Source: Escherichia coli (GTDB taxonomy: Bacteria; Pseudomonadota; Gammaproteobacteria; Enterobacterales; Enterobacteriaceae). From it: a stretch of 64,000 nt of DNA. The notes below the pieces were generated by a model that ran no database searches, was not told the origin of the DNA, and saw only the letters and a list, made by a program, of their open reading frames with translations. This document shows, piece by piece, positions 14,345 to 58,761 of this stretch; the first letter of the stretch is position 1; each line of letters begins with the position of its first letter. The translations under genes and the position numbers were made by a program. The DNA is taken from the NCBI RefSeq assembly GCF_041248615.1, contig NZ_CP158426.1; one strand, 5' to 3'.

Positions 14345-15037
14345 TTATTCTTTCGCCGGACAGCCATGCTCACTAAACGGCCCAATCATGACCGATGGCC
14401 CGAGATATTTCGGCTGGCGATGGAGGATTTTTGCGTCAATCACCGCGCTGACTCTGGCGAGTTTCTCCCGTAACTGAGTATAAAAACCGTGCTTCATATT
14501 GAGGTCTGGCGCGTTAAAGCCGATAGCGTCGATGCCGTACTGTTTTGCCAGCCAGATGGCGCGTTGGTTATGAAATTCTTGCGAAATAATGGTGATATGG
14601 TTTTCCCCAAACACCTTTTTGGCACGCACTACCGAATCCAGCGTTGAGAATCCGGCATAGTCGCAGAAGATCACTTTCGCCGGTACGCCTTTAGCGATCA
14701 AAGCCTGCTGCATACCTGAGGCTTCATCGTAATTTTTACGTCCGTTATCGCCACTTACCAGTAGCCATTTCACTTTTCCGGCGTGGTACAACGCTGCTGC
14801 GGTATCAATACGTCGGGTAAAGTAGCGATTACCCGGCCTCGCCCCCAGCAATAAACCCACGTTACGCGCCGGAACTGCGTTGACATCGCTCCAGGTCAGC
14901 TGCTTGCTGGTGTTGACCATAACGCGATCGGCAATAAAAAGGGTCGCTCCTGCTGTAAGCAACAATAAACAGCCAATCTTAAGAGTCCGGCGAGAAAAAC
15001 AAATACGGAGAAGAAGGCGGGCAAAGGCGCGCAGCAT
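14345..15037 (-). CDS. ygjQ: DUF218-domain protein YgjQ
   Basis: 230 aa, N-terminal membrane anchor; synteny with K-12. Confidence 0.85.
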
Positions 15038-19199: not shown

Positions 19200-31080
<11,881 letters not shown>

Positions 31081-31286
31081 TTAACATCTGTTGTTATTTT
31101 GCACGGTTTTTGTCGGGTATGGATTTGGCGATTGCTGCGCAAATGCACACTTTCAGGGCAACAACTGCCTGATTTTTGGGCAAGATAATTAACGTTTTCG
31201 TATAGTAATAGAGTGAAAGTATTTTAAATCAAGAGATTAGATTTATGCTTTAATCGCAAATTGCGATCTAAATCAAATTAATCAGT

Positions 31287-31315
31287 TAAAGATAACCGCA
31301 GCGGGGCCGACATAA
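31287..31315 (+). promoter_or_regulatory. sigma-28 (FliA) class III promoter of aer
   Basis: TAAAGATA - 11 bp - GCCGACATAA matches the sigma-28 consensus TAAAGTTT-N11-GCCGATAA about 50 bp upstream of aer. Confidence 0.55.
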
Positions 31316-31362
31316 ACTCTGACAAGAAGTTAACAACCATATAACCTGCACAGGACGCGAAC

Positions 31363-32883
31363 ATGTCTTCTCATCCGTATGTCACCCAGCAAAATACCCC
31401 GCTGGCGGACGATACCACTCTGATGTCCACTACCGATCTGCAAAGCTATATCACTCATGCTAATGACACTTTTGTGCAGGTGAGCGGCTTTACCTTGCAA
31501 GAGTTACAAGGGCAGCCGCACAACATGGTGCGTCACCCGGATATGCCAAAAGCGGCGTTTGCAGATATGTGGTTCACCCTGAAAAAAGGGGAGCCCTGGA
31601 GCGGCATCGTGAAAAATCGCCGCAAAAATGGCGACCATTATTGGGTGCGGGCCAATGCGGTACCGATGGTGCGCGAGGGAAAAATCAGTGGCTATATGTC
31701 GATTCGTACCCGGGCGACGGATGAAGAGATCGCGGCGGTGGAGCCGCTGTACAAAGCGTTAAACGCCGGACGTACCAGTAAACGTATTCATAAAGGCCTG
31801 GTGGTGCGTAAAGGCTGGCTGGGTAAACTGCCTTCATTACCGCTTCGCTGGCGGGCGCGTGGCGTGATGACCCTGATGTTTATCTTGCTGGCGGTCATGC
31901 TTTGGTTTGTTGCTGCCCCGGTGGTGACGTATATCCTCTGTGCGTTAGTGGTATTGTTGGCAAGCGCCTGTTTTGAATGGCAGATTGTCCGCCCGATAGA
32001 AAATGTCGCCCGTCAGGCACTGAAGGTGGCGACCGGAGAGCGTAATAGTGTTGAGCATCTGAATCGCAGCGATGAGCTGGGGCTGACATTACGCGCGGTA
32101 GGGCAGCTTGGCCTGATGTGCCGTTGGCTAATTAACGATGTCTCAAGCCAGGTGTCCAGTGTCAGAAACGGCAGTGAGACGCTGGCGAAAGGCACCGATG
32201 AACTGAACGAACATACCCAGCAGACAGTTGATAACGTTCAGCAAACGGTGGCGACCATGAACCAAATGGCGGCGTCGGTGAAACAGAACTCTGCCACGGC
32301 GTCGGCTGCCGATAAACTTTCTATCACTGCCAGTAATGCGGCAGTGCAGGGCGGGGAGGCGATGACCACGGTGATCAAGACAATGGACGATATCGCCGAC
32401 AGTACCCAGCGCATTGGCACCATTACTTCGCTGATTAACGATATTGCGTTTCAGACCAATATTCTGGCCCTGAATGCGGCGGTGGAAGCGGCGCGTGCCG
32501 GCAAACAAGGCAAAGGTTTTGCAGTGGTGGCAGGGGAAGTGCGTCATTTAGCCAGCCGCAGCGCCAATGCTGCCAACGATATTCGCAAGCTGATTGATGC
32601 CAGTGCTGATAAGGTGCAATCCGGTTCGCAGCAGGTACATGCAGCCGGACGGACGATGGAAGATATTGTGGCACAGGTGAAAAACGTCACCCAATTGATC
32701 GCCCAGATTAGCCATTCAACGCTGGAACAGGCCGATGGGCTTTCCAGCCTGACCCGTGCAGTGGATGAGCTTAACCTCATCACCCAGAAAAATGCCGAGC
32801 TGGTGGAAGAGAGTGCGCAGGTGTCGGCGATGGTGAAACACCGCGCCAGCCGACTGGAAGACGCGGTGACGGTGCTGCATTAA
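31363..32883 (+). CDS. aer: aerotaxis receptor (PAS-FAD, HAMP, MCP signalling domain)
   Basis: 506 aa, [34 protein letters not shown]. Confidence 0.92.
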
Positions 32884-55271: not shown

Positions 55272-55598
55272 ATGACTAAAAATACTCGTTTTTCCCCCGA
55301 AGTCCGTCAGAGGGCGATTCGTATGGTTCTGGAAAGTCAGGGCGAATATGACTCACAGTGGGCGGCAATTTGTTCCATTGCCCCAAAGATTGGCTGTACA
55401 CCGGAGACTCTGCGTGTCTGGGTGCGCCAGCATGAGCGGGATACCGGAGGCGGTGATGGCGGGCTCACCACCGCTGAACGTCAGCGTCTGAAAGAGCTGG
55501 AACGTGAAAATCGTGAACTGCGCCGCAGTAACGATATCCTTCGCCAGGCTTCCGCTTATTTTGCGAAGGTGGAGTTCGACCGCCTCTGGAAAAAGTGA
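55272..55598 (+). CDS. IS3-family transposase OrfA (IS629/IS1203-like)
   Basis: 108 aa, [51 protein letters not shown]; HTH plus leucine zipper. Confidence 0.85.
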
Positions 55599-56012
55599 TG
55601 CCACTGCTGGATAAGCTGCGTAAGCTGTACGGGGTCGGACCGGTATGCAGTGAACTACATATTGCCCCGTCAACGTATTACCACTGTCAGCAACAGCGAC
55701 ATCATCCTGATAAACGCAGTGCCCGTGCGCAGCGCGATGACTGGCTGAAGAAAGAGATACTGCGCGTATACGATGGGAATCATCAGGTATACGGTGTGCG
55801 TAAAGTCTGGCGTCAGTTGTTACGGGAAGGAATCAGGGTAGCCAGATGTACAGTGGCGCGCCTCATGGCGGTTATGGGACTTGCCGGTGTTCTCCGGGGT
55901 AAAAAGGTCCGCACTACCGTCAGCCGGAAAGCCGTTGCCGCAGGCGACCGCGTAAACCGTCAGTTTGTGGCAGAACGTCCTGACCAGTTGTGGGTGGCTG
56001 ATTTTACTTACG
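55595..56012 (+). CDS. IS3-family transposase OrfB, 5' exon (interrupted by group II intron)
   Basis: Frame runs to …[10 protein letters not shown] then meets GTGTG at 56013; the ORF-track continuation [15 protein letters not shown] is intron read-through. Confidence 0.65.

Positions 56013-58761
<2,749 letters not shown>

Follow-up and report, generated by a model that had tools for sequence, protein, structure and literature searches.

The aerotaxis receptor gene aer is preceded by a motif of the type that sigma-28 (FliA), the sigma factor for flagellar genes, reads, which raises the question of whether the gene answers to the flagellar cascade alone or to a further regulator as well. We addressed this in a stretch of 64,000 nucleotides of Escherichia coli chromosome, hereafter the window. 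Positions 31259 to 31319 almost certainly form the single promoter of aer, a composite element combining a sigma-28 promoter with a CRP site. The aer promoter, its start, sigma factor and activator are already known, from K-12 experiments published in 2010 and a genome-wide confirmation in 2014. Its function in the window strain is carried over from K-12, and from the sequence we infer that the same mechanism operates here and in other enterobacterial genera.

The aer locus and its promoter elements

The aer coding sequence was taken from the list of open reading frames as 506 codons at 31363-32883 on the + strand. Its product, which shares 502 of 506 residues (99%) with K-12 Aer, carries a PAS domain at the N-terminus (within 31363-31883) and an MCP signalling domain. 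The same open reading frame is labelled aer by RefSeq both in a genome identical to the window over this region, that of E. coli PCN033, and in K-12 MG1655; positions 31057-31400 match the former at 100% identity and the latter at 95.3%. The gene is flanked by the divergent patA/ygjG and by nfeR.

The sigma-28 motif lies on the + strand. Its -35 element, TAAAGATA, occupies 31287-31294 (-32 to -25) and matches the consensus TAAAGTTT at 6 of 8 positions. An 11-nt spacer, ACCGCAGCGGG (31295-31305), of fixed length and variable sequence, separates it from the -10 element, GCCGACAT, at 31306-31313 (-13 to -6), which likewise shares 6 of 8 positions with its consensus, GCCGATAA. Within the -10 element, positions -11 to -9 form the CGA core, and the C at -8 departs from consensus. 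Including the trailing AA, the whole motif TAAAGATAACCGCAGCGGGGCCGACATAA spans 31287-31315 and occurs once in the window, exactly where the initial annotation had placed a motif with 11-nt spacing upstream of aer. From the end of the -10 octamer to the aer start codon at 31363 there are 49 nt. The transcript start (+1) falls at 31319 on the same strand, transferred from K-12 primer extension onto identical sequence, and leaves a 5' untranslated leader of 44 nt (31319-31362) with a Shine-Dalgarno AGGA at 31352-31355.

On the other side of the intergenic region, the longest open reading frame for patA/ygjG runs from 29566 to 31056 on the - strand (496 aa), while the RefSeq start corresponds to window position 30945 and gives a protein of 459 aa. 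The published ygjG sigma-54 promoter, TGGCGCAATCCCTGCAAT, is found at approximately 30986-31013, inside the extra N-terminal stretch, so the true intergenic region is 30946-31362. The paper on the sigma-54 regulon deals with this divergent ygjG/patA promoter, at a distance of over 270 bp, and says nothing of aer (PMC2831329). A scan of the window with Rfam gave no match near the aer promoter. It did return an ALIL pseudoknot, a frameshift element of the IS3 family, at 55553-55669 (+, 111.7 bits) and a group II intron catalytic domain at 58196-58282 (+, 64.9 bits), matches which indicate mobile elements some 24-27 kb downstream of aer.

Sigma-28 dependence and the transcript start

The proposal that aer is read from a sigma-28 promoter is borne out by genome-wide data from K-12. 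In K-12, the FliA ChIP-seq motif upstream of aer is the very same 28-mer, TAAAGATAACCGCAGCGGGGCCGACATA, and its peak has a fold-above-threshold score of 21 (Fitzgerald et al. 2014, PMC4183435). In the same study aer RNA fell significantly from 225 in motile MG1655 to 12 in a fliA deletion (PMC4183435).

The K-12 promoter has been dissected in detail by Hollands, Lee, Lloyd and Busby (Mol Microbiol 2010, PMC2859248). Activity dropped from 223 to between 23 and 50 Miller units on point mutation at -32, -30 or -28 (Table 1 of PMC2859248), and when CGA was changed to GCT it stood at 12 Miller units, as low as in the absence of sigma-28 (PMC2859248). In vitro, sigma-28 holoenzyme transcribed the aer fragment and melted it from -10 to +4, as detected with KMnO4 (PMC2859248).

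Primer extension gave one product, with a start 6 bp downstream of the -10 octamer (PMC2859248). The published numbering puts the T of TAAAG at -32 and CGA at -11 to -9 (PMC2859248). No base differs between the window and K-12 from 31285 up to the ATG, which makes 31319 the +1 and gives a leader of 44 nt. Three statements in PMC2859248 converge on this position, namely the 6-bp distance from the octamer, the numbering of TAAAG and CGA, and the centring of CRP at -49.5. The primer-extension product was sized approximately, which gives the start an uncertainty of about ±1-2 nt; the evidence for the position comes from one laboratory's primer extension and KMnO4 footprints, together with where the ChIP-seq peak lies. 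A comparison with the mapped K-12 start had been named by the initial annotation as the check on its own proposal, and the two agree.

The requirement for CRP

Sigma-28 dependence would also be expected of a plain class 3 promoter of consensus type, governed by the FlhDC-FliA-FlgM cascade only and lacking a promoter-specific activator. This reading draws on the recognisable sigma-28 octamers and 11-nt spacing, on the dependence of aer on FliA, and on the firing of the promoter without CRP in vitro when polymerase is plentiful. We nevertheless consider it very unlikely, for the reasons set out in this section.

The elements are far from canonical, the word used in the initial annotation. Against TAAAGTTT-N11-GCCGATAA the aer site has 4 mismatches in 16 positions, two in each octamer. 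Position 6 of the -10 octamer, a near-invariant T, is T in 48, A in 3 and C in 1 of the 52 K-12 FliA ChIP sites, and the sole C is that of aer; at position 6 of the -35 octamer, A is as frequent as T (23 and 23 of 52). The aer -10 element is thus a member of the sigma-28 class, but a sub-consensus one.

Upstream of the motif lies a CRP-cAMP site that did not appear in the initial annotation. It reads AATTGCGATCTAAATCAAATTA, occupies 31259-31280, is centred between 31269 and 31270 (-49.5) and is identical to that of K-12. It matches AAATGTGATCTAGATCACATTT at 17 of 22 positions and the core TGTGA-N6-TCACA at 8 of 10, and the -35 octamer opens, with the T at 31287, 17.5 bp downstream of the site's centre (31269.5).

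This site is required in K-12. When sigma-28 was supplied independently of CRP, activity was 223 Miller units with CRP and 53 without it, a difference that weighs against control by the cascade only, and the effect of CRP on aer is not exerted through sigma-28 levels (PMC2859248). Mutating the CRP site abolished activation (PMC2859248). Activation was also lost when the site was shifted to -41.5, -44.5 or -54.5; at -61.5 activity was two-fold lower, still required CRP and was independent of sigma-28, probably owing to a cryptic sigma-70 promoter (PMC2859248). In vitro, CRP was required at low polymerase concentration, while at high concentration the promoter fired without it (PMC2859248), so the dependence on CRP is quantitative rather than absolute. 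FeBABE mapping showed CRP flanked on each side by alpha C-terminal domains (PMC2859248). The authors termed CRP at -49.5 with sigma-28 an unusual organisation (PMC2859248), and the position is that of neither class I (CRP near -61.5) nor class II (near -41.5) promoters.

Two further observations count against a plain class 3 promoter: the CRP site is intact in the window, with its sequence and spacing kept across genera, and six other classical sigma-28 promoter regions are without direct CRP regulation (PMC2859248). The statement that aer is under normal flagellar-regulon control is therefore right as regards FliA and wrong in so far as it implies that the cascade suffices. A sigma-28 motif upstream of aer, even one that looks like consensus, does not amount to plain flagellar-cascade control, since expression also needs CRP.

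An inverted repeat, ATCGCAA-A-TTGCGAT (31253-31267), with perfect 7-bp arms set 1 nt apart, overlaps the upstream half of the CRP site. Its left arm is kept in E. coli and Citrobacter, is found as ACGCAA in Pluralibacter and RIT691, and is absent from Enterobacter, Cedecea and Pseudocitrobacter. The repeat could be the site of a second regulator, or could have arisen by chance.

Motif strength and chance expectation

A consensus search of the 64-kb window allowing up to 3 mismatches missed the aer site, and its sole match was intragenic, at 23587. Weight matrices were also built from the 52 K-12 FliA ChIP-seq motifs (PMC4183435) with aer left out. With the matrix of the 51 other sites, the aer site scored 11.5 bits and ranked 17th among about 128,000 window positions; it stood 47th among the 52 ChIP sites, and about 4 equal or better matches are expected per shuffled 64 kb. 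With a matrix of 24 strong FliA sites in which the spacer was ignored, it scored 15.1 bits and ranked 3rd, and the chance expectation was 0.38 sites per 64 kb. For the 306 nt separating aer from the long upstream open reading frame, the stretch used in the estimate, only about 0.001-0.01 such sites are expected on the coding strand. The aer motif is marginal by score alone, and clearly non-random once position and strand are counted. The motif scan suggested in the initial annotation thus recovers a recognisable sigma-28 layout, but its score does not stand clearly above chance in 64 kb.

Three other sigma-28 motif matches score as well as or better than the aer promoter, at 23587-23614 (+), 25531-25504 (-) and 14500-14527 (+), all of them intragenic. 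The match at 23587 is antisense within an open reading frame of 477 aa (22772-24205), and that at 25531 is on the sense strand of an ebgA-like open reading frame of 1081 aa. By coordinate conversion, the K-12 equivalents of these two are expected between the aer and yqjA sites, an interval for which the published table records no FliA ChIP-seq peak (PMC4183435). The weak intragenic FliA site of K-12 yqjA had no match in the window at up to 3 mismatches. Motif matching alone could not tell the real aer site from the intragenic chance matches in the window.

These equal or better matches are what speaks for the motif being fortuitous, with aer either transcribed by sigma-70 polymerase from another intergenic promoter (a sigma-70-like site is found at 31177-31206) or activated directly by FlhDC, of which an older study listed aer as a target (cited in PMC4183435). 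That explanation is scarcely credible: sigma-70 holoenzyme gave neither an aer transcript nor promoter melting in vitro (PMC2859248), a single primer-extension product was obtained and element mutations abolish expression (PMC2859248), Fitzgerald et al. state that FliA transcribes aer and that aer is not a direct FlhDC target (PMC4183435), and the elements are invariant across genera. As for the sigma-70-like site, a scan of 30900-31500 for TTGACA-N16-18-TATAAT found this one alone, with 1.2 expected in shuffles, and it was rejected as an aer promoter; the same scan found no such site at 31287-31315.

Conservation within E. coli

The composite sigma-28 and CRP promoter is conserved within the species. 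The 36-mer at 31285-31320, covering the promoter, is present exactly in 5287 of 5426 complete E. coli genomes, and the 32-mer at 31252-31283, covering the CRP site, in about 5250 (5252 of 5426, counting records that match over the full 32 bases). For the whole 344-bp stretch, only 500 genomes are at least 99% identical to the window.

Over 309 bp the window and K-12 differ at 16 positions, all upstream of 31285: 0 of 81 positions from 31285 onwards differ, against 16 of 228 upstream (Fisher p = 0.0085). Fifteen of these differences are also upstream of the CRP site. The remaining one, at 31284 (-35), falls between the CRP site and the -35 octamer and is the only position of the module to vary: the window and 734 E. 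coli genomes have A there, K-12 has G. About 86% of matched E. coli genomes have G, in most cases presumed from the single-mismatch class of a 61-bp search, which accounts for most of some 4590 genomes. A is the state of most other genera (...AACAAC-TAAAG).

One natural disruption was seen. In the pig isolate E. coli 20Ec-P-124 (NZ_AP017610.1, L083), the IS30-family element ISApl1 is inserted within the aer upstream region (3465379-3466713), with its transposase coding sequence at 3465501-3466475. The flanks of the match overlap at window positions of about 31275-31285, so ISApl1 splits the CRP site and parts its upstream half from the sigma-28 -35 element. The insertion should uncouple aer from CRP, and ISApl1 may provide an outward-reading promoter for the gene.

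Conservation across genera

Homologues of aer were retrieved by protein rather than by promoter. Eighteen orthologues, 72-95% identical at the amino-acid level, supplied upstream regions that were aligned with that of the window, giving 19 sequences from about 10 genera, among them Citrobacter, Enterobacter, Pseudescherichia, Phytobacter, Pluralibacter, Cedecea and Pseudocitrobacter. All 19 share, without exception, TAAAG, GCCGA, the A at -7, and the bases TG.GA and TC of the CRP half-sites. The 11-nt spacer, which has no indels, and the distance from CRP to the -35 element are equally fixed, while the flanks and the sequence of the spacer are free to vary. When the 250 nt upstream of each orthologue were searched for CRP-like 22-mers, the best one had exactly the same offset as in E. 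coli in all 18. At position 6 of the -10 octamer, 15 of the 19 sequences have A, 4 have C and none has T. The whole module from CRP to -10, with fixed spacing and a non-T base at this position, is thus present in all 18 enterobacterial aer orthologues.

Among more distant homologues, at 40-55% identity (from Pantoea, Erwinia, Burkholderia and other genera), many likewise have an upstream sigma-28 motif. One of at least 12 bits was found on the coding strand at 35 of 78 loci, and on the opposite strand at 1 of 78. Some of these motifs are at or near consensus, e.g., TAAAGTTT-N11-GCCGATAA in one locus (L031). Seven distant loci were inspected for a good CRP-like match at the E. coli offset, and none had one.

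We favour, with moderate confidence, the view that the weak -10 element and CRP at a fixed -49.5 form one composite module under selection at aer in about 10 genera of Enterobacteriaceae, that the sub-consensus -10 element confers activator dependence, and that cAMP gating of aer is a selected trait of the family rather than a peculiarity of K-12. The invariance across genera supports such a selected module without proving it. Conservation of the CRP to -10 module across genera is a small extension of the published work.

Across the same 19 sequences the leader also has a box, TTAAC(A) in the window (31330-31335, +12 to +17), of which TTA is invariant and C at least 90% conserved, while the leader sequence around it varies. 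The box could be a contact for a protein or a small RNA. No conserved RNA structure was found in the 44-nt leader, the consensus energy being -1.49 kcal/mol with no compensatory pairs.

A model for aer activation

The composite promoter would join two signals. In late exponential phase, export of FlgM would free FliA to join core polymerase. High cAMP, the mark of a poor carbon supply, would bring CRP to 31259-31280. There, its activating region 1 would contact the alpha C-terminal domains on AT-rich DNA about 18.5 bp to either side, and these alpha contacts would recruit sigma-28 holoenzyme to the sub-consensus octamers. DNA would then melt from about 31309 to 31322, with transcription from about 31319. 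Because both octamers are sub-consensus, recruitment of polymerase would be efficient only with CRP-cAMP bound; we infer that it is the non-consensus -10 element that causes the activator dependence. With a promoter composed in this way, aer would therefore be on only when the late flagellar cascade (free FliA) and high cAMP coincide. Every step up to transcription has been shown in K-12: there, on identical sequence, the work established where the transcript starts, how mutations in the elements act and where the alpha C-terminal domains sit, as well as FliA binding and the dependence on FliA and CRP (PMC2859248, PMC4183435).

Comparison with known promoters

The closest counterpart is the K-12 aer promoter itself, at the same locus and in the same neighbourhood of ebgR, ygjH, patA/ygjG, aer and nfeR. 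The two sequences agree fully over the 22-bp CRP site and between -34 and the ATG, and differ at -35 (A in the window, G in K-12) and at 15 more positions upstream of the CRP site.

Among the eight K-12 sigma-28 promoter regions tested, the CRP arrangement of aer is common only to trg (PMC2859248). The two E. coli genes, both chemoreceptors, share the CRP/-35/-10 spacing and the dual dependence on sigma-28 and CRP (PMC2859248). The trg promoter is at a separate locus outside the window and its -10 element, given in the ChIP table as GCCGATGA, has the consensus T where aer has C. Five of the six other regions were without CRP binding, and in the sixth, tsr, CRP was bound 132.5 bp upstream of the promoter with no detectable effect on expression (PMC2859248). 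The class 3 promoters of fliC, tar, motA, tsr and flgM use the same sigma factor, with two octamers, an 11-nt spacer and a start a few bases past the -10 element, as at aer; however, they are near consensus, whereas the mismatches of aer are accompanied by a need for CRP.

In its mode of activation, aer resembles the class I (-61.5) and class II (-41.5) CRP promoters of sigma-70, at which activating region 1 also contacts the alpha C-terminal domain and recruits polymerase. It is unlike them in that CRP is centred at -49.5, a position from which sigma-70 promoters are activated very weakly, and in that the holoenzyme at aer carries sigma-28.
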